Assembly (NCBI GenBank): GCA_965213675.1
Contig: OZ243916.1
Location: 1,056,001-1,120,000 of the forward strand
Source: an uncultured Candidatus Binatia bacterium
GTDB taxonomy: Bacteria; Desulfobacterota; Binatia; UBA9968; JAJDTQ01
Direction of reading: 5' to 3'
Length of the DNA stretch: 64,000 nucleotides
This document shows positions 613-15,597 of this stretch, piece after piece. The notes under the pieces are model-generated. The model was given only the letters and a program-made list of their open reading frames with translations, made no database searches and was not told the DNA's origin. Position numbers and translations under genes: made by a program. Every line of letters begins with the position of its first letter. Within the stretch, counting starts at the first letter, position 1.

Positions 613-1674
613 TTACTTGAAGCGGGCGCGCTCGTCGGGCGAACGCGGCCGGTCGCCCGTGGGGACGATTTTCTCCACCAGGATGTCGGCGCCGTTGATG
701 GCGATGCGGATCTCCCTGTCAGTGTCGAAGTTCATGTCGTCGAGGAGAATCGTGATCCACTCTTCCATCTTGTGAGGCTTGGCCGAGGTGATGTAGGAGT
801 ACTTGCGCGTGGCTTGGTCCGAGCGCAGCAGGGTGTGTGTGTTGTATCCTGGGAACTCGTCGGCCATGACGCCGATGACGGTGAGCGCTTCCCGCCGCTC
901 GAAGTACTTGAGCGTCACGGTGTACGGAGTCTGCATTCCATGGCCGCTGCCGGAAGCGCGCCGGCGGCTGCCGGTGACCGCGTCACCCGAGCCGCTGCCA
1001 GTCCCGGCGGAGACTCGACGCGGGGCTCCGCCGCCAGCAGCCGCATTGCGCAGGTGAGCCAACTTGGTGGCCATGGTGACGCCCAGATCCGCGGCCAACT
1101 CGCGCGCCCGGTCGCCCACGACCTCGTCGATGCAAAGCTCGCGTTGGGACAGGCAGTTGGCGGGAGCGGGGTAACCTCTTTCCGCGATCTCGTATTCCTT
1201 GGGAGCATCGTTGCCAACGACGTCGACGATCTCACCGTTGAGCCGTACACGGACTTCCGTGCGGGCGCCGTCGCCCTTGGGCTGCGCCGCTGCGCGGACA
1301 CGAATCAGGAACAGGGCTCGTACCTGGTGCGAAGCGGTATCACTTCTGTTCATGCTCTTGGCAAGATCGATCAGGTCCATCTTGGGCCGGCGATCACTGA
1401 CCTTCCAACCCAAGTCCACGGCCACCGCTTCCTCGTCCACCACGCGGAACCCCTCGCGGGCCATGTTTTCGCGCAGAACGCTGATGACGCGCCTGAAGAT
1501 CTCGCTGCCGCGCCGGACCGTGAACTTGTCATCGTCCCAAGCCGCCACCAACACCGGCACGTCGCTGTACTGATGGGTCTGCGCCACGGTGGGTCCACAG
1601 GCCGCAAGAACCAGGGCCAGGGCGGGCAGCACCGTACCCAAGGCAATTCGTGTCTTCCTCATGAAACTCATCAT
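613..1674 (-). CDS. Hypothetical lipoprotein
   Basis: RBS GAAGGAG before ATG 1674; signal peptide with lipobox LAAC; globular ORF with GC-typical codons. Confidence 0.75.
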   Translation of the reverse strand: MMSFMRKTRIALGTVLPALALVLAACGPTVAQTHQYSDVPVLVAAWDDDKFTVRRGSEIFRRVISVLRENMAREGFRVVDEEAVAVDLGWKVSDRRPKMDLIDLAKSMNRSDTASHQVRALFLIRVRAAAQPKGDGARTEVRVRLNGEIVDVVGNDAPKEYEIAERGYPAPANCLSQRELCIDEVVGDRARELAADLGVTMATKLAHLRNAAAGGGAPRRVSAGTGSGSGDAVTGSRRRASGSGHGMQTPYTVTLKYFERREALTVIGVMADEFPGYNTHTLLRSDQATRKYSYITSAKPHKMEEWITILLDDMNFDTDREIRIAINGADILVEKIVPTGDRPRSPDERARFK

Positions 1675-2057
1675 GTCTGCCTCCTTCTGCCGTCTTTGGA
1701 TTCGGTCATGGAACACCCATGCCACCGTGGCCATGGAAGGGCCAGACTCTGTTTCGCTCAATTGCGCGCTCCGACACGTTCCAGGATGGCGCCCAATACT
1801 TCGCTCTGTTGCCTGACCGACTCCTTTTGTTGTCGACTAGATACGCTGTCTCCTGAAGAGAATCAACATCCATCAAAGGGGCCCGTGGACCTTCGAAGAG
1901 TCCGCCGCAAGCGGGAATCCAGGCGGGAAGAAGCGGATGGGTGGGATCGCGGTTTGAAAAACATGAGCATCCGTGGACAATGCTGTCTAACTCTTCCATG
2001 GAAACATACAGGAGGGAGACGCGCATCTTCCAGCCACTTTCGTCGAATTTCCATTGA

Positions 2058-3623
2058 GTGACGGACATGTCGAGTCGGATTCTGCACGGAGCGGACGAGG
2101 TCCTTCGCGGGACATTCTGGGACTTGGCCCAGATCGGCGACCCGGAGGGACCCAAGTACCCCGAGCCGGTGCTTCGGCGGTTGGCGGCGAAGATCCTGGA
2201 GGGGCGTGCCCACGAGCCTCTGGTGTTCCGCCTTTGCCATCTGGCGCGGGCGGCCGCGTTCGCGGCGGCGGAGGGGCCGTCCGGGTGGCTGGAGTTCTTC
2301 TGCGCGCCGGGAGCAGGGCGGTCCGGCTGGGCCGCGGGTTGGCTGCGGGCACGCCTGCCGGAGGAGTTGGAAGAGCGCGGGGAAGGTGCGCCGGTCACCG
2401 CCACGGCCCAACAACTGGCACTCCGATACCGGGAAAGGGCGGAGCCGGTCACGATCTCGTTTGGCGCTGCGCCGCTTCTCGCGGCCTTCATGGAATTCCT
2501 TCTGAACGCGCTCCCTTACCCGACGCTGAGCGACGCCATGGCCGTACTGTCGCGCCCGGAACTCGGTTGGCGGGAGCTTCAGGACACGGCCAATGCCCTG
2601 TCTCGCGCCGTCTACGCGTGGCTGCGCGAGCATACCCGGCCGGTGCAGGACAGCCGTCACTTCGACGCCATGACGCGGTTTATGTCCGGTCGCAGCGGAC
2701 GCGGCGACTTCAGTGCCGAGGATATCGACGACGACGCGGTGCTGGACTTCTGGCGCGCGGCTTCGCTGGAAGCCGGCTCCGAGTTCCGCACCTTCCGCAA
2801 GACCTTTCGGACGTTCCTCCGTCTGGCTGAGGCCCTGCGCGAGGAGGCATTGCGCGACGGGCTGGAAAACCCGCAGACTCTGACCGCCGTCGCGGGACGG
2901 GCGGGTCGTGAACCCGTGGACCCGTCTTCGCCGGGGCTCGACCTGATGCACGCGTCGGGGCCGGCCACGGCTCTCTGGGAGGGTTCGGAAGAGGACAACG
3001 ACGCCTCCCCGCTGGAGGCGCTCGCGGGGTCGGAGATCAAGCTGCTCCTGGCGAGCGAGATCAAACGGCTGGCGCTCGTGGACGCCCACCCGGTATTCCT
3101 CCCGCGGCTCGCCCGCTCGCTCCTGCGCGACCACTGCTTCGGGCAGGCCCAGGGACGCATTTCCCAGGCGCTCCGCGCCAACCCGAACGCCGCCCGTGCA
3201 CTTGCCGCCGAACCGCCTGAGACCGGCTATGACCGGGAGGCGGCCGCGCTGCTGGCGCTGTCCATCCATCTCGACGATCTCCTGGTGGCCGCCGCGGCGG
3301 CCTTGGCGGGCGCAGGGGACCGCGGCGGCGCCGTGCGGCGGCTCGACTTCGAGACCCTGGGCCGGGGACGCCGTGCGCTCAAGGGATTGCGGCGCAGGGG
3401 TTTCGACCGGGTCCGGTCCGGCGAGCCCGAGGCCCTGGCCGACCTGCGGCGGGCGGCTCCCGCCATGGCGGCGCTGCGTGAACGGCTGGCGCCGCTGTGT
3501 GCGCAGCTTCGGGAGGGCGCCCCTTGGGCGCCGTGCCAGCAGGAGGACGAAACCGTGTTCGCGCGACAGTTTGCCCGCATCTACGGCGACGCGGGCGCGG
3601 GAGAAGGAGGGACGGCCGCATGA
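2058..3623 (+). CDS. Hypothetical cytoplasmic helical protein (~520 aa), gene 1 of operon
   Basis: Long ORF; stop overlaps next start (ATGA 3620-3623); start may be ATG 2067. Confidence 0.75.
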   Translation: MTDMSSRILHGADEVLRGTFWDLAQIGDPEGPKYPEPVLRRLAAKILEGRAHEPLVFRLCHLARAAAFAAAEGPSGWLEFFCAPGAGRSGWAAGWLRARLPEELEERGEGAPVTATAQQLALRYRERAEPVTISFGAAPLLAAFMEFLLNALPYPTLSDAMAVLSRPELGWRELQDTANALSRAVYAWLREHTRPVQDSRHFDAMTRFMSGRSGRGDFSAEDIDDDAVLDFWRAASLEAGSEFRTFRKTFRTFLRLAEALREEALRDGLENPQTLTAVAGRAGREPVDPSSPGLDLMHASGPATALWEGSEEDNDASPLEALAGSEIKLLLASEIKRLALVDAHPVFLPRLARSLLRDHCFGQAQGRISQALRANPNAARALAAEPPETGYDREAAALLALSIHLDDLLVAAAAALAGAGDRGGAVRRLDFETLGRGRRALKGLRRRGFDRVRSGEPEALADLRRAAPAMAALRERLAPLCAQLREGAPWAPCQQEDETVFARQFARIYGDAGAGEGGTAA

Positions 3624-4177
3624 GCCGGAGTTGGAACACCCTGTCGGATCCGGAACGCGACCGCGTGCGCCGCGCTTTCGTCCTGAGCGTGGGCGCGGAC
3701 GCGCTGGCGGCATCGGAAGAGCCGCCGGACGTGGTCCGTCCGCCTCGTTTCGATCAACTCTACGCCGCGGCCCGTGACCCGCTGGCGGCGCTGACCCCGG
3801 CGCTGGGCGCGGCGCTGGCAACGCACGAGCGCGCCCGCGCCACGTTCGAAGCGCTGCTTCGGGAAGCCGCGGCCTGCTGGTTCCCGGTTGCGGCCGCGGC
3901 GGCCGCCCCGGGCGGCCTCGATTCCCGCGAAGAGGGAGGTTTTCGCATCTGGCTCCGTCCCTCCAGTGCCGGCCACGGCCAAGTCTACGTGCTCCTGCGC
4001 GCGGCCGAGGGGCGCGACGTCCAGCCTCGGGCCATCGTGGCGGCGTCCCCCGCGGCGGCGCCCGTGTGTACCCCCCTTCCGGAGGACATCGACGGCGTCT
4101 ATCAACTCATCCAGCGCGAGGATTCGCCCTTGGTGCGCGCCATCCGCGATCCCGCCTCAAAGCTCGCTCTCCGCTGA
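3620..4177 (+). CDS. Hypothetical protein (~185 aa), two halves joined by an Ala-rich linker
   Basis: RBS GGAGG, ATGA coupling to upstream gene; MSRSWNTLS...FPVAAAAAA... Confidence 0.7.
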   Translation: MSRSWNTLSDPERDRVRRAFVLSVGADALAASEEPPDVVRPPRFDQLYAAARDPLAALTPALGAALATHERARATFEALLREAAACWFPVAAAAAAPGGLDSREEGGFRIWLRPSSAGHGQVYVLLRAAEGRDVQPRAIVAASPAAAPVCTPLPEDIDGVYQLIQREDSPLVRAIRDPASKLALR

Positions 4178-4189
4178 CGGGTCCACGTC

Positions 4190-5572
4190 GTGCGCGCCCG
4201 GGTCTACATCGCCACCACCGAGGGACCGGTCCTGGTGCAGCGGCTGGCTCCCGAGGAGGGGTTGGCCGAGGCCGAGTTGTCCGCGGTGTGTCTGGACGGC
4301 ACCCCCACCCGGTTGCCCATCACCGGCGCCTACACTTGGTTCGTACGCGATCACGTGCGCTCTTTTTCCGGCGGCGCGGCCTACCGGCTGGACCTGGACG
4401 CGCGCATCGACGGGGGAAGCAGTTGGATGCTCGGGGCGTGGGTCGCGCACCTGCTGCTGTCCGAGGGACGTCTGGCCGTGGGAGACGACAGCGCGGATGC
4501 CGCCGTGTTCGCCACCGGCGAGGTGGCGGTGGCCACCGACGCCGAGCGCCGCACCGAGGTGCGGTCCGTGGGCCACGTCACGGACAAGGTGGCGCGTCTG
4601 GCCCAGCGCGCCGCGGAGGAGGCCGCCGCCGGACGCCGGGTTGTGCTGCTGGTGCCACGGGAAAACGCGGTCGAGGCCGGAGCGGCCGTGGAACGGTTGC
4701 CGGCAACGGTCCGGGAGCGGCTGACGCTGCGCGTGGCGTCCGATACCGCGGAGGTGCGGGAGGTGTTGACCCCGCCGGACGGCGCTGCGCCGGCCACTCC
4801 TGCTGCGGCCGCGTCCGCCACGGCTTCGTCCGCCACGGAGCCGCCGACTGCGACATCGCCTGCTCGCGTCGATGACCGGCGCCGGGGAGGCAAACTGGCC
4901 GTGGCGCTGTTGGCTTGCGTCCTGCTGGGAACGGGGGCCGCCGGCTTTTGGAGTTGGCGCAACGTGGAGCGGGAGTGGGAAGACCTTCGCCTCGCCGGCC
5001 GTTACGTCGAACTGGCGCGTTCGCTGGACGGGTTTCCGCTTCGAGCCGCAGCCGACCACGTGCGCACCCGGTGGCTGGACCCGGGGGCGGCCGCGGGTTT
5101 CACGTTGCAGGTGGCGGCGCGCCGCCCCGCCGACGGCGGGTCATGCTCCGGCATGCGCTTCCGCGGGAGCGTCCTGGCGACCACGCCGGTCAACGCCTCC
5201 GGCCCGCTCTACCGCCTTACGCAACCGCGCTCGTTGTGCGGGTTGGAGATCCAGACGTCGCCGCCCGAGACTGGCACTGCCGGGTACGCCTGGATATCCT
5301 TGCGCATGGTACCCGAGGGTCCGGTCCCCGTGGCGCTGTTGCCTGCGCACCGCGTGGTCTCGAGCACGCTCGCGGACTCCCCGGTCGCGCTGTCGCTGGA
5401 CCTGCCGCTCTATGTCCAGGATCATTGGGCCTGGGCAGTCACCTCGGTGTGGGCGCCCGCGCCGTCGGAGGATGTGGCGCCGCTTCTGGAAACCGGAGAC
5501 GACGCGGCCCTTGACGCGCTGACGAAGCTGGGGCTCAGGGTGACCCGGGCCCGGGTCGAGTGGGCCCGATAA
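4190..5572 (+). CDS. Membrane-anchored protein with N-terminal Lon/S16-like protease domain and C-terminal extracytoplasmic domain
   Basis: Ordered motifs IDGGSSWML, FATGEV, VRSVGHVTDK, VLLVPREN; Ala/Pro linker; TM helix LAVALLACVLLGTGAAGFW. Confidence 0.7.
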   Translation: MRARVYIATTEGPVLVQRLAPEEGLAEAELSAVCLDGTPTRLPITGAYTWFVRDHVRSFSGGAAYRLDLDARIDGGSSWMLGAWVAHLLLSEGRLAVGDDSADAAVFATGEVAVATDAERRTEVRSVGHVTDKVARLAQRAAEEAAAGRRVVLLVPRENAVEAGAAVERLPATVRERLTLRVASDTAEVREVLTPPDGAAPATPAAAASATASSATEPPTATSPARVDDRRRGGKLAVALLACVLLGTGAAGFWSWRNVEREWEDLRLAGRYVELARSLDGFPLRAAADHVRTRWLDPGAAAGFTLQVAARRPADGGSCSGMRFRGSVLATTPVNASGPLYRLTQPRSLCGLEIQTSPPETGTAGYAWISLRMVPEGPVPVALLPAHRVVSSTLADSPVALSLDLPLYVQDHWAWAVTSVWAPAPSEDVAPLLETGDDAALDALTKLGLRVTRARVEWAR

Positions 5573-7696: not shown

Positions 7697-8308
7697 CTAT
7701 AGAAATTTGACGAGGGCTACGATCAGGCCGCCTTGGGCGATCAGGGCGCCGAACAGCCATTTCACCAGTTCAGCCTTCACCGTCTCGATGGCTGCGCTGG
7801 TTTCGTGGCGCAGGGCTTCAACGCTGGCCTTTGTTTCTTGCCGTAGGGCATCGATGCTGGCCTCAACCTTGGCGATGTCCGCCTTGGTTTCTTGCCGCAG
7901 GGATTCGATGCTGGCCTCAACCTTGGCGATGTCTGTCTTGGTTTCTTGCCGCAGGGCATCGATGCTGGCCTCAACCTTGGCGATGTCCGCCTTGGTCTCT
8001 TGTCGCAGGGATTCGATGCTGGCCTTGGTCTCTTGTCGCAGGGATTCGATGCTGGCCTTGGTCTCTTGTCGCAGGGATTCGATGCCGGCCTTGGTCTCCT
8101 GTCGCAGGGATTCGATGCCGGCCCTGGTCTCCTGTCGCAGGGATTCGACCTCTGTCTTTACCGCGGCGACATCGGCTTTTGTGGCGAGGTTGGCGTTGAG
8201 GAGGGCGACATGCTCTTCGGCGAGTGTCTCGGCCTGCTTCTCGGTGAAGCCGCTCTCGGTCAGACGCTTGACGAAGCGATGCGTGTCGAAGGCGATAGCC
8301 TCAGCCAT
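7697..8308 (-). CDS. DUF1640/CCDC90-like coiled-coil protein with C-terminal TM helix
   Basis: FDTHRFVKRL..GFTEKQAE, LATKAD, repeats, ELVKWLFG + hydrophobic tail. Confidence 0.85.
   Translation of the reverse strand: MAEAIAFDTHRFVKRLTESGFTEKQAETLAEEHVALLNANLATKADVAAVKTEVESLRQETRAGIESLRQETKAGIESLRQETKASIESLRQETKASIESLRQETKADIAKVEASIDALRQETKTDIAKVEASIESLRQETKADIAKVEASIDALRQETKASVEALRHETSAAIETVKAELVKWLFGALIAQGGLIVALVKFL
7800..8150 (-). repeat. Intragenic tandem repeats (33-bp and 54-bp units)
   Basis: IESLRQETKA(S/G) x5 and DIAKVEASI(D/E)(A/S)LRQETK(A/T) x3 at DNA and protein level. Confidence 0.9.
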
Positions 8309-8416
8309 GAAGCGAACATAACAACCTTACCCGTGCGGGACAAGTACAAACGAGGCTTCCAACCTGGTTCCCGGCACCAGTGAAAAGACAATCGCCGCCA
8401 TGCGCCGGCAACCCAG

Positions 8417-8674
8417 GGAAGGTCTGAACAATGGCGGTTGTGGCCGGCAAGCGGAACGGCCGACCTGTTAGTGGCGTATACGGCTCTATCCGCTTCTCCA
8501 GACGCTTCCACGGTATCAGCCCCTCCATCTTCTCCAAAAACTCCTCCTGCCGCGTCCGCCGCTTCTTCCGATCATGTTCCATCTCCGCGAAGCTCGCCTG
8601 TCTCATCGTTTCCCCTCCATGCACTGCCGTTTTCGCCATTATGACGTGCGAAAGGTCTCTTGTTCAGATCTTCA
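8417..8674 (-). mobile_element. Internally deleted IS5-family element (transposase N-terminal remnant)
   Basis: TIRs ggaaggtctgaacaa (8417-8431) / ttgttcagatcttca (8660-8674), ccag/ctag flanks; remnant MRQASFAEMEHDRKKRRTRQEEFLEKMEGLIPW...IEPY. Confidence 0.8.
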
Positions 8675-11218: not shown

Positions 11219-11530
11219 CGTCATTCCCTGCCCCCCTCATCGTCATTCCCAAGTCCCTATTGATCGTCTTTCCCAAGACCCTACTCTTCGTAATTCCCGC
11301 GAAAGCTTGCCCCCGACCCCGATCGGGGGCGGGAATCCAGGGGCGGTGGTGGGGCGCCCAAACCGCTGACCCCGGCCACCCCTGGATTCCCGCTTTCGCG
11401 GGAATGACGAAGAGGGGAGACTTGGGGTTGAGGATGAGGGGTGCCGGGGTTGACGAAGAGGGGGCAGCCAGGAATGACGAAGAGCGGGACCTGGGGTTGA
11501 CGATGAGGGGTCCGGGAACGACGAAGAGGT
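11219..11530. repeat. REP cluster (GTCATTCCCGCGAAAGCGGGAATCCAG family) with decayed tandem half-repeats
   Basis: Inverted REP pair 11289-11409 flanked by ~22-24-bp units (cgtcattccc left, ggaatgacgaagagg right). Confidence 0.8.
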
Positions 11531-13303: not shown

Positions 13304-15454
13304 TCACGGGGCGAGCGTTCTGGCGATACGGAACCCGAAGTCGTCGTACCGGTTCGAGGTGGGGTTCCTGAAGCGGTTGGCGGACCGGAGGAACCTCGGA
13401 ATGTCGCCCCAGGAACCGCCGCGCAACACGCGCTGGCTGCAATCCCCACCACTCACCCAAGCACTCCCGTCAGTCGGCGCTCCTTCGTAGCTGCCGTGCC
13501 AACAGTCCTCCACCCACTCATATACATTCCCATGTACATCGTGCAATCCAAATCCGTTCGCCAGAAAACTCCCCACTGGTATCGTCCGCTTACGATAGCG
13601 CCCCTTCGAACCCAACCCGTACGTGTAGTTCCCGTCGTAGTTCGCCTGGTCCGTCCCAATCGTCGATCCCATATGAAACGGCCCTGCCGTCCCCGCTCGC
13701 GCCACATACTCCCACTCCGCCTCACTCAGTAGACGATACCCCTTCCCTGTCCGCCCCGATAACCACTCCACGTACCCCTTCGCATCCTCCCAACTCACCC
13801 TTATCACTGGACGCCGCCCTCGTCCCCATCCCCCATCATCCGGCCGATACCCCCGACACCCTCCCCCTGCTACACACGCATCCCACTCCCCAAAAGTTAC
13901 CTCATACTTCCCCACCGCAAACGCCTCCCCTATCCGCACCCGGTGACGCGGCCCCTCCTCCCTGAACCTGCCTTTTTCTCCATCCGGCGATCCCATCGTG
14001 TACTCCCCAGACGGTACCACCACCATCTCCGGACACTCCCCGCAGTCCCGAAACTCCCGCCCAGGTCGCTCCGCCTCCTGCGCTCGACGCGCCGCCTCTT
14101 CACGCGCCTTCGCCTCCTGCGCCAACCGTTCCCGCCGCTGCCGCTCCAACTCTGCCCGCTGCCGTGCCGCCGCTTCCGCCATCTCCCTTGCCCTGCGCGC
14201 CTGCTCCTGCTTCTCTCGCGCGGTCTCTTCGCCCAATACCTTCAACGCCGCACCCTGCTCGGCCGTCAATCGCCCCGTCTCCCGCAACCCCTTCGAGGCC
14301 TGCCACCGCCGAATCGCCTCCTCCGTCCGCTTGCCGAAAATCCCATCCGGTTTCCCCAGATCGAAATTCAACGACGACAACCCCTCCTGGATCAGGCGCT
14401 TCGTCGCGAGATCCCAATCCGGCTCTGCCGCCGGCGCCGGGACCCTCTGAAACTCCGGTCGGGGAGGTTGAGCGCCGGGACCCGACAACCGCGGTCGCTC
14501 CGGAAAAACGCCGTCCGCACGGGCCAACGCCAGCACTTGGTCGCCACTTCCTTGCAGCGTGGCGTTCTGGATACGCTTTTCGTTCAGCCACAAGGAGTTG
14601 GTCATGTACAATTCGAGATAGGAGATCGCCTCCTTCGCCGTCACCCTGCGGTCGCTGTTAGCGTCTGCCTTCCCGTACAGTGCGTCCAGCAGGTGGTGCG
14701 TGAACCGCCCATGCTGCGCTTCCCTGTCCCAAGTGGCGATCTGCGTGCTCCTCGCCGCGGTCAGTACTACCAACCCTGCTCCCGTTTCGGGCAGCCGCGC
14801 CTCGGACGAGACCGCCGAACCCGTCACGATCACGCCCCCATCGCTGTTGCCCGAGAAGCAGGTGTCCAGGAACACCCGCACCGACCTGACGCCCCGCAGC
14901 TTTCCCAGATTCCGGTAAAGCACCTCGAGGCTGTACCCTTCCACCCGGGCCGCGGAGACCGGCACGTCCACGGGCAAGAGATAGGGCTTCCCCTTGTGCG
15001 CGCCAGGCACGCCATACCCTTGGTCCCCGGCAGGGACGCCGTGCCCCGAATAGTACACCAACACATCCTTGTCCGAGTCCTGGTCCATGCCTCGAAGGAG
15101 CGCCAGTCGCGCCTTAAGGTCGTTCATCTCCGTGTCCGGCCCGCCCAGCACCTCCAGCATCTGCCGCCGGGTGGCGTTGGGTATGTGAATCACGTCCTCC
15201 CTGGCGTAACCGAGGACGTCCACGACGTAGCGCTTGAACGCTTCCGCGTCCCGGAGCGCGTAGTCCACGGGCGGAATGTTTCTGGACTGGTAATCCTTGT
15301 TGCCGATGATCACGGCGATGCCAGGCCGCTCGGCTTGCGCTTCCGCGCTCCAGACCGCCACGCACACCACCGCCACGACGGCCGGCAACAACCCCTCGCA
15401 AACCGACCTTGTCCAGCTTGTCCACGGTGTCGCCACGAGTTCTTTCGCCATCAC
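13304..15454 (-). CDS. Secreted caspase (C14) + peptidoglycan-binding + coiled-coil + FGE/C-type lectin protein
   Basis: Signal peptide; YYSGHG and FLDTCFSG dyad; DGIFGKRTEEAIRRWQ; complete FGE motif set. Confidence 0.92.
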   Translation of the reverse strand: MMAKELVATPWTSWTRSVCEGLLPAVVAVVCVAVWSAEAQAERPGIAVIIGNKDYQSRNIPPVDYALRDAEAFKRYVVDVLGYAREDVIHIPNATRRQMLEVLGGPDTEMNDLKARLALLRGMDQDSDKDVLVYYSGHGVPAGDQGYGVPGAHKGKPYLLPVDVPVSAARVEGYSLEVLYRNLGKLRGVRSVRVFLDTCFSGNSDGGVIVTGSAVSSEARLPETGAGLVVLTAARSTQIATWDREAQHGRFTHHLLDALYGKADANSDRRVTAKEAISYLELYMTNSLWLNEKRIQNATLQGSGDQVLALARADGVFPERPRLSGPGAQPPRPEFQRVPAPAAEPDWDLATKRLIQEGLSSLNFDLGKPDGIFGKRTEEAIRRWQASKGLRETGRLTAEQGAALKVLGEETAREKQEQARRAREMAEAAARQRAELERQRRERLAQEAKAREEAARRAQEAERPGREFRDCGECPEMVVVPSGEYTMGSPDGEKGRFREEGPRHRVRIGEAFAVGKYEVTFGEWDACVAGGGCRGYRPDDGGWGRGRRPVIRVSWEDAKGYVEWLSGRTGKGYRLLSEAEWEYVARAGTAGPFHMGSTIGTDQANYDGNYTYGLGSKGRYRKRTIPVGSFLANGFGLHDVHGNVYEWVEDCWHGSYEGAPTDGSAWVSGGDCSQRVLRGGSWGDIPRFLRSANRFRNPTSNRYDDFGFRIARTLAP

Positions 15455-15597
15455 GTGCAGTCTCCTTCGTTCAATCGCCGGACATCAGCTCGCCGTGAAA
15501 AAACAACACAGCGATGGACAGTTTTCAACAGGTGGCCGGCAGGTCCATTCAAAGTCGGCAAACCCTTCACGGTCCGTCCTGTCAGTCGCCCCTTTCA

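Follow-up and report, generated by a model that had tools for sequence, protein, structure and literature searches.

A three-gene locus in an uncultured Candidatus Binatia bacterium

The locus described here lies at the left edge of a 64,000-nucleotide stretch of DNA (the window) from an uncultured Candidatus Binatia bacterium (GenBank assembly GCA_965213675.1, contig OZ243916.1, positions 1,056,001 to 1,120,000 of the forward strand). It consists of three consecutive genes at 2058-5572, called gene 1, gene 2 and gene 3 and together the triad. The last of them encodes a membrane protein whose N-terminal half is predicted to fold like the proteolytic domain of Lon. Coordinates are window positions unless a different sequence is named.

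1954..1981, + strand: promoter-like site, sigma-70-like, TTGAAA-16-GACAAT, upstream of gene 1 (consensus match only)
2067..3623, + strand: gene 1, 518 aa from ATG 2067 (the length of database entry P0081); the alternative GTG 2058 would give 521 aa
3620..4177, + strand: gene 2, 185 aa, cytoplasmic, family not named
4190..5572, + strand: gene 3, 460 aa, single-pass membrane protein

The tight coupling claimed for the three genes in a first-pass annotation of the DNA is borne out by the open reading frames (ORFs). The stop codon of gene 1 overlaps the start codon of gene 2 in the sequence ATGA, through which gene 2 is translationally coupled to gene 1, and 12 nt separate gene 2 from gene 3. One promoter-like site was found upstream of gene 1, against 0.1 expected in shuffled sequence. 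The three are genuine genes rather than chance ORFs because their GC content at third codon positions is high (0.83-0.85 in genes 1 and 3), because homologs are numerous at E<=0.001 in a word-indexed search (77 for gene 3, 64 for gene 1 and 69 for gene 2), and because their order is kept in all nine loci with enough DNA. Overall GC content is 0.72-0.74 across the triad (window 2000-5500) and 0.59-0.69 in the flanking kilobases.

None of the three proteins matches Pfam, NCBIfam or PADLOC above noise. Precomputed Pfam domains are likewise absent among the homologs of genes 1, 2 and 3, whose sole name is "hypothetical protein". Sequence searches of the PDB, run with the single gene 3 protein and with profiles of genes 3, 2 and 1, returned nothing below E 0.2. 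A match of gene 3 to the NCBIfam sigma factor PRK12513 (E 0.04) is sub-threshold and was taken as noise.

Gene 3 carries a predicted Lon proteolytic domain

The features assigned to gene 3 are the following.

4190..4780, + strand: residues 1-197, probably cytoplasmic Lon-fold proteolytic domain without AAA+, assigned from fold matches and conserved Ser/Lys
4421-4423 and 4586-4588, + strand: candidate dyad, Ser78 and Lys133, from conservation and alignment with Lon
4784..4888, + strand: residues 199-233, disordered Ala/Pro/Thr-rich linker ending in basic RRRGGK (predicted local distance difference test, pLDDT, <50)
4889..4957, + strand: transmembrane helix, residues about 234-256 (KD19 maximum 2.05 at residue 236; model helix 236-268)
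4997..5569, + strand: residues 270-460, ectodomain, helical and then beta-sandwich-like, from the model and a conserved Cys/motif pattern

In an AlphaFold2 model built with 62 homologs (mean pLDDT 83.8), residues 1-197 fold into a compact alpha/beta domain, 199-233 form a disordered linker, 236-268 a long helix and 270-460 a C-terminal domain. Foldseek returned 119 matches to the PDB for this model at E<=0.001, with the P-domains of LonA, LONP1 and E. coli Lon on top. The best match is LonA (E 2.3e-6, probability 1.00), and TM scores reach 0.65 on the target. In VIA, ranks 1-16 are all Lon-like (LonA, LonB, LonC, RadA, ComM and BrxL); over residues 1-197 their Z values are 12.2-14.1, with a root-mean-square deviation of 3.1-3.6 and 142-172 aligned residues. 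Next come CalpL (Z 10.3) and the birnavirus Ser/Lys VP4 proteases (Z 8-9), while unrelated folds score 8.0 or less. On the strength of this model, the N-terminal half of gene 3 is assigned the Lon proteolytic domain fold. Gene 3 is without an AAA+ module, since the Lon-like fold begins at residue 1, and no AAA family match was found for it.

The S16 motifs named in the first-pass annotation are all present in gene 3: DGGSSW at residues 74-79, ATGEV at 108-112, VGHVTDK at 127-133 and LVPREN at 154-159. Indeed, every motif quoted there for the three genes was recovered, in the order given. Ser78 and Lys133 are invariant in the 62 close homologs of gene 3. Conservation over greater distances was examined through a HMMER scan of 1.84 billion representatives with gene 3, which found 856 clusters (50% identity) at E<=0.001, 654 of them at E<=1e-10. 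A set of 130 sequences was assembled from the window protein and 129 of the ids P0213-P0356, taken from the best 150 and consisting of representatives clustered at 50% identity; it omits 15 proteins of fewer than 330 aa, along with six close relatives that had already been identified. Within this set, Gly110 is kept in all 130 sequences, Ser78, Lys133 and Gly76 in 129 each, Trp79 in 128 and Thr109 in 121.

Motifs of this domain line up with those of Lon when profiles are compared. An hhalign comparison of the 130 gene 3 N-domains with 27 LonA P-domains (31 loci were tried, and four dropped for short ORFs or a missing motif) gives a probability of 84.5% and E 6.9e-6. In this alignment TGEV stands opposite TGEI and vP..N opposite iP..N, and Lys133 coincides with the final Lys of GGLKEK. 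Wider profiles were needed on both sides because the gene 3 profile aligns only weakly with a single LonA sequence (probability 0.6%). That weak alignment pairs DGGSS with DGPSA, so that the Lon Ser falls on S77, one residue before the invariant S78. The near-invariance of Ser78, Lys133, Gly76, Trp79 and Thr109-Gly110, collinear with the Lon motifs, is the pattern expected of a working active site. The original reading of gene 3, a chain of ordered S16 motifs with no AAA+ module, thus agrees with a Lon fold that starts at residue 1 and carries conserved Ser and Lys. A Lon_C domain was also expected there: Foldseek, VIA and hhalign all recover the Lon fold, and Pfam Lon_C does not match.

A single membrane helix joins the Lon domain to a variable ectodomain

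Gene 3 contains one strong hydrophobic 19-mer, at residue 236 (segment about 236-254), and none at its N-terminus. The basic cluster RRRGGK lies directly ahead of the helix. A hydrophobic segment follows the Lon domain in 118 of the 129 relatives and occurs at the N-terminus in none of the 129; by this criterion the family is without a signal peptide. The Lon domain probably resides in the cytoplasm and the C-terminal domain in the periplasm. The linker, single transmembrane helix and extracytoplasmic domain of about 190 aa originally proposed for gene 3 are therefore upheld by the model, by hydrophobicity and by the 118 relatives.

Cys319 and Cys350 of the ectodomain are both invariant, as is its RRPxDGGSCxGxRFR motif. 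Its divergence is faster than that of the Lon domain, with a mean identity of 47% against 70%; the linker stands at 29%. BLAST detects no likeness between the ectodomain and other proteins of the surrounding gene island, and Pfam finds no PDZ domain in gene 3.

Sampling of 80 gene 3 relatives revealed no Pfam domain in 74, DUF4189 in five and a SAM domain in one; Lon_C was found in none of the 80. In the wider family (P0302, P0309, P0317, P0327, P0337 and P0318), DUF4189-containing tails replace the ectodomain in some members, and one member has a SAM domain and no clear transmembrane helix. The Lon-like module is therefore joined to varied C-terminal domains. Source names seen in the family are "hypothetical" throughout. 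Judged by its relatives' sequences, gene 3 is a member of a large unannotated family of single-pass membrane proteins with a variable ectodomain.

Gene 2 has an invariant Ala-rich motif

One feature stands out in gene 2.

3875..3907, + strand: residues 86-96, CWFPVAAAAAA, candidate cleavage or docking site with invariant WFPxAAAA

The run FPVAAAAAA (residues 88-96), singled out in the first-pass annotation as a plausible cleavage linker, is present and falls within the most conserved part of the protein. In an alignment of 51 sequences, W87, F88, P89, A91, A93 and A94 are invariant. Mean identity is 82% over residues 86-96, 49% in the N-terminal half and 66% in the C-terminal half, making WFPxAAAA the best-conserved part of gene 2 at the sequence level. 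An Ala-rich cleavage site in CalpT, described below, provides a precedent for such a run.

The role of anti-regulator once proposed for gene 2 fared less well. No recognizable anti-sigma factor emerged from Pfam, where no anti-sigma family matches, from the Atlas or from the PDB profile search. The Atlas comparison, made with the homolog P0202, returned only hypothetical clusters apart from one zf-HC2 cluster, no more than a lead, with a score of 0.80 and a share of 15%.

Gene 1 is a helical protein outside named families

Gene 1 is a cytoplasmic, mostly helical protein outside named families. Its AlphaFold2 model (50 homologs, pLDDT 78.9) comprises an N-terminal alpha/beta-plus-helical domain at about 10-267, a disordered linker at 268-312 and a C-terminal helical bundle at 313-510. 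This model has no match at E<=0.001 in the PDB by Foldseek or in BFVD, and its best VIA score, Z 6.8, is below the noise level stated for helical proteins. Matches to Pfam TetR_C_41 and PSD3 are sub-threshold and were taken as noise. Gene 1 is not a sigma factor by any of the tests run: the sigma-70 family has no match at E<=10 in gene 1 and 49 homologs, and no sigma factor is among the listed fold matches.

One segment of gene 1 bears on DNA binding.

2649..2852, + strand: residues 195-262, possible integrase N-terminal SAM-like (core-binding-like) segment, a weak lead

Gene 1 does contain the sequence EDIDDDAVLDFW..FRTFRKTFRTF that had been likened to an integrase core-binding segment. The likeness itself is reflected in weak leads that fall on the same segment. 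By hhalign, residues 195-262 align with the N-domain of the genome's own integrase at E 0.0067 (probability 5.7%) and with a second integrase at E 0.57. VIA matches residues 188-383 to the Cre core-binding domain (Z 5.0) and to ALOG (Z 4.9), the Atlas feature score against Phage_int_SAM clusters is 0.80, and Pfam Phage_int_SAM_1 appears in one of 50 gene 1 members at E 0.2. The catalytic Phage_integrase domain has no match at E<=10 in the 50 members. A SAM-like DNA-binding segment in gene 1 is possible on these alignments. The broader proposal that gene 1 is a regulator with a sigma- or integrase-like fold finds no Pfam match and no fold above noise.

The assembly contains two 333-aa integrase ORFs with open frames and identical scores on two contigs, at G000:C1:1012487-1012735 (L017) and G000:C12:26429-26677 (L018); the stated contamination of the assembly is 8%.

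The triad is inherited as a unit

Hidden Markov models of genes 1, 2 and 3 were run over the window and ten related loci, leaving out the 1.2-kb locus L009. Gene 3 was found in 11 of 11 sources, gene 2 in ten and gene 1 in nine, always in the order gene 1, gene 2, gene 3. The misses of genes 1 and 2 correspond to contigs that end inside or just before gene 2 or gene 3 (L010 and L012). The three genes are collinear in 9/9 loci with enough DNA, drawn from several phyla. Independent loci number about seven, because some are near-duplicates (L011 and L013 with L010 and L012; L014 with L015). Pairwise identities of the three genes correlate across 36 locus pairs (r 0.94-0.97); since kin are not independent, this correlation speaks for co-inheritance only. 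The triad is inherited as a unit, and the co-occurrence anticipated in the first-pass annotation is seen in both gene order and covarying identities.

Named records come from metagenome-assembled genomes (MAGs) of Candidatus Binatia, Thermodesulfobacteriota, Nitrospinaceae and Defluviicoccus, and remote relatives occur in an alphaproteobacterium and in Magnetococcales. The distribution is sparse. A triad gene was present in 1/401 and 1/301 genomes of two phylum samples, in each case only the query genome of the search, and the species-level genome collection contains only three loci. Three genomes that carry the gene have one copy each.

A metagenomic protein of 722 aa (P0078) runs in a single frame through the C-terminal part of gene 1, gene 2 and the Lon domain of gene 3, and represents either a frameshifted assembly or a natural fusion.

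The triad lies in an island of genes for exported proteins

As the triad sits at the edge of the window, 18 kb of upstream sequence was added. The neighboring features are as follows.

613..1761, - strand: lipoprotein, 382 aa, lipobox LAAC, divergent from gene 1; no Pfam match; homologs beside the triad in L001 and L016
5655..7511, - strand: exported 618-aa protein with C-terminal FGE-sulfatase domain (C-type-lectin-like, E 3.5e-59), convergent to gene 3; signal-like N-terminus
13304..15484, - strand: caspase (C14)/PG_binding_1/FGE-sulfatase protein, 726 aa, beyond unrelated genes; the architecture also flanks the triad elsewhere
L020 10771-18023 (G000:C1:1048771-1056023), all - strand: upstream part of the island, with genes for a caspase/PG_binding/FGE-sulfatase protein (727 aa), a 226-aa fragment, proteins of 318 aa and 200 aa, an OmpA-subtilase (692 aa) and an SLT protein (266 aa)

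The island measures about 15 kb around the triad. Besides an SLT transglycosylase and lipoproteins, it encodes exported proteases tethered to peptidoglycan (caspase-PGB-FGE and OmpA-subtilase), and its left border is formed by EamA, MutL and MiaA genes. All nine island neighbors scanned have a signal-peptide-like or lipobox N-terminus. In L001, L002, L003, L013, L014 and L016, the triad is surrounded by the same families, with PEGA, MORN and DUF4384 variants. FGE-type proteins occur in 9/9 loci with flanks. In six loci, falling into four distinct groups, an SLT gene with the same orientation as gene 1 lies directly 5' of it. The triad is always found among exported caspase/PG-binding/FGE-sulfatase, OmpA-subtilase, SLT and lipoprotein genes. 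The secreted lipoprotein, caspase and lectin-like setting noted at the outset is real and conserved across loci, including those from other phyla. PADLOC assigns only generic caspase, subtilase and MotB-like matches to the island neighbors, and no cas genes were found among those scanned.

Several features of the surrounding DNA were noted in passing. The 382-aa lipoprotein (613-1761, -) and the 318-aa exported protein (L020 13675-14631, -) are paralogs with 46% identity over 339 aa, and neither has a Pfam family. The 226-aa ORF (L020 12983-13663, -) looks like a chimeric remnant: its middle resembles the family of these two paralogs and its last ~48 residues resemble the end of an FGE-sulfatase domain. 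A gene for a CCDC90-like coiled-coil protein (window 7697-8308, -) contains 33/54/108-nt tandem repeats at 7827-8148, with 90-95% matches. The short ORF beside it (window 8301-8639, -) may be an N-terminal piece of an insertion sequence (IS)-family transposase, in which case the second caspase gene could have been split off from the island by an insertion. Between a DUF6282 gene and an Fe-ADH gene, at window 11236-11529, degenerate 24-nt tandem repeats form two arrays.

A possible module for regulated proteolysis across the membrane

The favored reading, to which we assign a probability of about 0.45, is that the triad might act as a single module that carries out regulated proteolysis across the inner membrane. 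A periplasmic event, which could be the binding of a ligand or cleavage by the exported proteases of the island, would switch on the cytoplasmic Lon domain of gene 3. The active domain would then cut gene 2 at WFPxAAAA, much as CalpL cuts CalpT in LAA|A. Cleavage would destabilize gene 2 and free or activate gene 1, a helical protein that may bind DNA through its integrase-SAM-like segment. The result would be altered gene expression, with the island itself as a plausible target.

This interpretation retains part of the regulator/anti-regulator/protease triad first suggested for the locus. The AAA-less Lon domain, the transmembrane helix and ectodomain, the co-occurrence of the genes and their setting all stand. 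The sigma/anti-sigma identity of the partners is not supported, and PADLOC does not indicate a defense role.

A number of observations weigh against regulated proteolysis. Pfam Lon_C (PF05362) gives no match to gene 3 at E<=1, a genome-wide Lon_C search matched four places with gene 3 not among them, and the gene 3 (A2) profile found no PDB sequence. The fold by itself is no proof of catalysis, because the Lon-fold domains of RadA, ComM and BrxL score equally high and are not known to be proteases. The Ala run of gene 2 could instead be a buried structural element. Gene 1 has no recognizable regulator domain, and its SAM-like lead is weak. The ectodomain of gene 3 is matched by VIA only to Ig-like or macroglobulin-like beta-sandwiches at Z 7.0-7.5, within the stated noise of the aligner. 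Finally, the triad is linked to the island genes by proximity alone.

Alternative explanations

An unlikely alternative, though the most probable of the three, is an envelope-triggered defense or programmed-death module. Here gene 1 would be a latent toxic effector, held in check by gene 2 and unleashed through proteolysis by gene 3, while the exported lectin-caspases and subtilase would sense attack on the envelope by phages or predators. The sporadic spread of the triad across phyla (1/401 and 1/301 genomes; three loci in the species-level collection) and its GC content above that of the flanks would suit such a system. Conflict systems described so far commonly contain caspase, FGE and subtilase domains (PMC7159879, excerpt), and the island has generic PADLOC caspase and subtilase matches. 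Protease-released effectors are a known theme in defense (PMC12642450, excerpt). A defense role had also been raised in the first-pass annotation, but PADLOC gives no indication of one: no model matches genes 1, 2 or 3 beyond E 0.016, nor any other island-specific protein. The sole PADLOC-DB 2.0 match of the triad, gene 3 against PDC-S05 (E 0.016, 13.5 bits), was treated as noise. Furthermore, a search of viral contigs yielded no relative, gene 1 showed no nuclease, pore, TIR or other effector fold, and in the window genome the island has no integrase or transposase gene immediately beside it.

The constant company of exported proteins raises a different and quite improbable explanation, that gene 3 is a maturation or quality-control protease. 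Its substrates for processing or degradation would be the island's exported proteins, as cytoplasmic precursors or once inserted in the membrane, or gene 3 itself, with genes 1 and 2 as adaptors or chaperones rather than a signaling output. The SLT gene directly 5' of gene 1 on the same strand (six loci in four groups) is consistent with this idea, as is the existence of a degradative membrane-anchored AAA-less Lon protease, YlbL/DdcP (PMC6051672, excerpt). However, the Lon domain of gene 3 is probably cytoplasmic and the neighbors act outside. Two soluble partners that are strictly co-inherited and strongly conserved fit a dedicated role better than general quality control, and the invariant Ala motif is found in gene 2 rather than in the exported proteins, although the latter were not systematically examined.

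Least probable of all is that gene 3 is not a protease and that its Lon-fold domain is a binding or oligomerization scaffold, as in RadA, ComM and BrxL, within a membrane complex of other function: those domains do score like true Lon proteases (Z 12.3-14.0) and gene 3 lacks a Pfam Lon_C score, yet Ser78, Lys133, Gly76, Trp79 and Thr109-Gly110 are nearly invariant in 130 divergent sequences and collinear with the Lon catalytic motifs.

Relation to known proteolytic systems

Regulated proteolysis by the triad would work most like the CalpL-CalpT-CalpS system, although without its defining features. In that system, CalpL cleaves CalpT in the Ala-rich sequence LAA|A, exposing a C-degron, and more processing is needed to free the sigma factor (10.1101/2024.05.08.593097, excerpt). 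With the CalpT site there is a direct precedent for an AAA-less Lon domain that targets an Ala run, and it is by analogy with this site that gene 2 might be cleaved. In both systems a Lon-fold Ser/Lys domain that does not depend on ATP is joined to a sensor domain (CalpL matches gene 3 at Z 10.3), and each comprises three genes, two of which encode soluble partners of small or medium size. The known cleavage site of CalpT is Ala-rich, and gene 2 has its invariant WFPxAAAA as a candidate site. In contrast to CalpL, the Lon domain of gene 3 is N-terminal, starting at residue 1, and no SAVED domain, the cyclic-oligoadenylate sensor of CalpL, is detected by Pfam. The sensor part is instead a transmembrane helix with an ectodomain; its trigger would be extracytoplasmic and would not be cyclic tetra-adenylate (cA4). 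Gene 1 is not a sigma factor like CalpS, which is of the ECF type, gene 2 is not a recognizable anti-sigma factor like CalpT, and the scanned neighbors include none of the cas genes of the type III CRISPR setting in which the CalpL system is found.

YlbL/DdcP of Bacillus subtilis consists of a transmembrane helix, a Lon peptidase domain and a PDZ domain (PMC6051672, excerpt). It shares with gene 3 a membrane-anchored Lon peptidase domain that lacks an AAA+ ATPase. The topology is reversed, however: the helix of YlbL is N-terminal with protease and PDZ domain outside the cell, whereas in gene 3 the protease would be inside and the outer domain is not PDZ. Gene context and partners also differ.

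The P-domains of LonA and LonB (MEROPS S16; Pfam Lon_C) have the same fold as gene 3 and collinear Ser and Lys motifs. Unlike these proteases, gene 3 has neither an AAA+ module nor an N-domain and is below Pfam Lon_C detection. It carries G-x-S-W in place of G-P-S-A-G, and its Ser and Lys are 55 residues apart, compared with 43 in the genome's own LonA.

In the DegS/RseP-RseA-sigmaE pathway, an envelope signal leads to proteolysis of an inhibitor and release of a cytoplasmic regulator. The logic proposed for the triad is shared with this pathway. There the substrate spans the membrane, whereas here the protease would; the proteases are unrelated, and the triad has no sigma/anti-sigma pair.

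No description of the gene 3 family or of the triad was found in a literature survey of partial coverage, and the whole word "Lon" is absent from a 2020 eLife paper on conflict systems. So far, CalpL is the known case of an AAA-less Lon domain serving as a signal-activated, site-specific protease, and the membrane-anchored YlbL has its protease outside. A role in transmembrane signaling by cutting may not yet have been described for the unnamed gene 3 family.

Significance

The gene 3 family, below the detection of Pfam and NCBIfam, appears to place a Lon-fold Ser/Lys domain inside the cell behind one transmembrane helix and a variable ectodomain, and to pair it with two partners of its own. 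If the triad does carry out regulated proteolysis, it would add a type of receptor that reads out a transmembrane signal by proteolysis. It would also offer a first handle on the function of the widespread, unexplained gene clusters that encode caspase, FGE-sulfatase and peptidoglycan-binding domains.

A more far-reaching version, itself distinctly unlikely in full, extends regulated proteolysis to the whole island as a relay from periplasm to cytoplasm. Peptidoglycan-tethered lectin-caspases and the OmpA-subtilase would sense an envelope event and act on the ectodomain of gene 3, the Lon domain would cut gene 2 at WFPxAAAA, and gene 1 would be released to DNA. Were this so, the gene 3 family, with its 856 clusters at 50% identity, would represent widespread and unrecognized one-pass receptors whose output is proteolysis rather than phosphorylation, and the logic of the relay would resemble the extracellular protease cascades of animal innate immunity.

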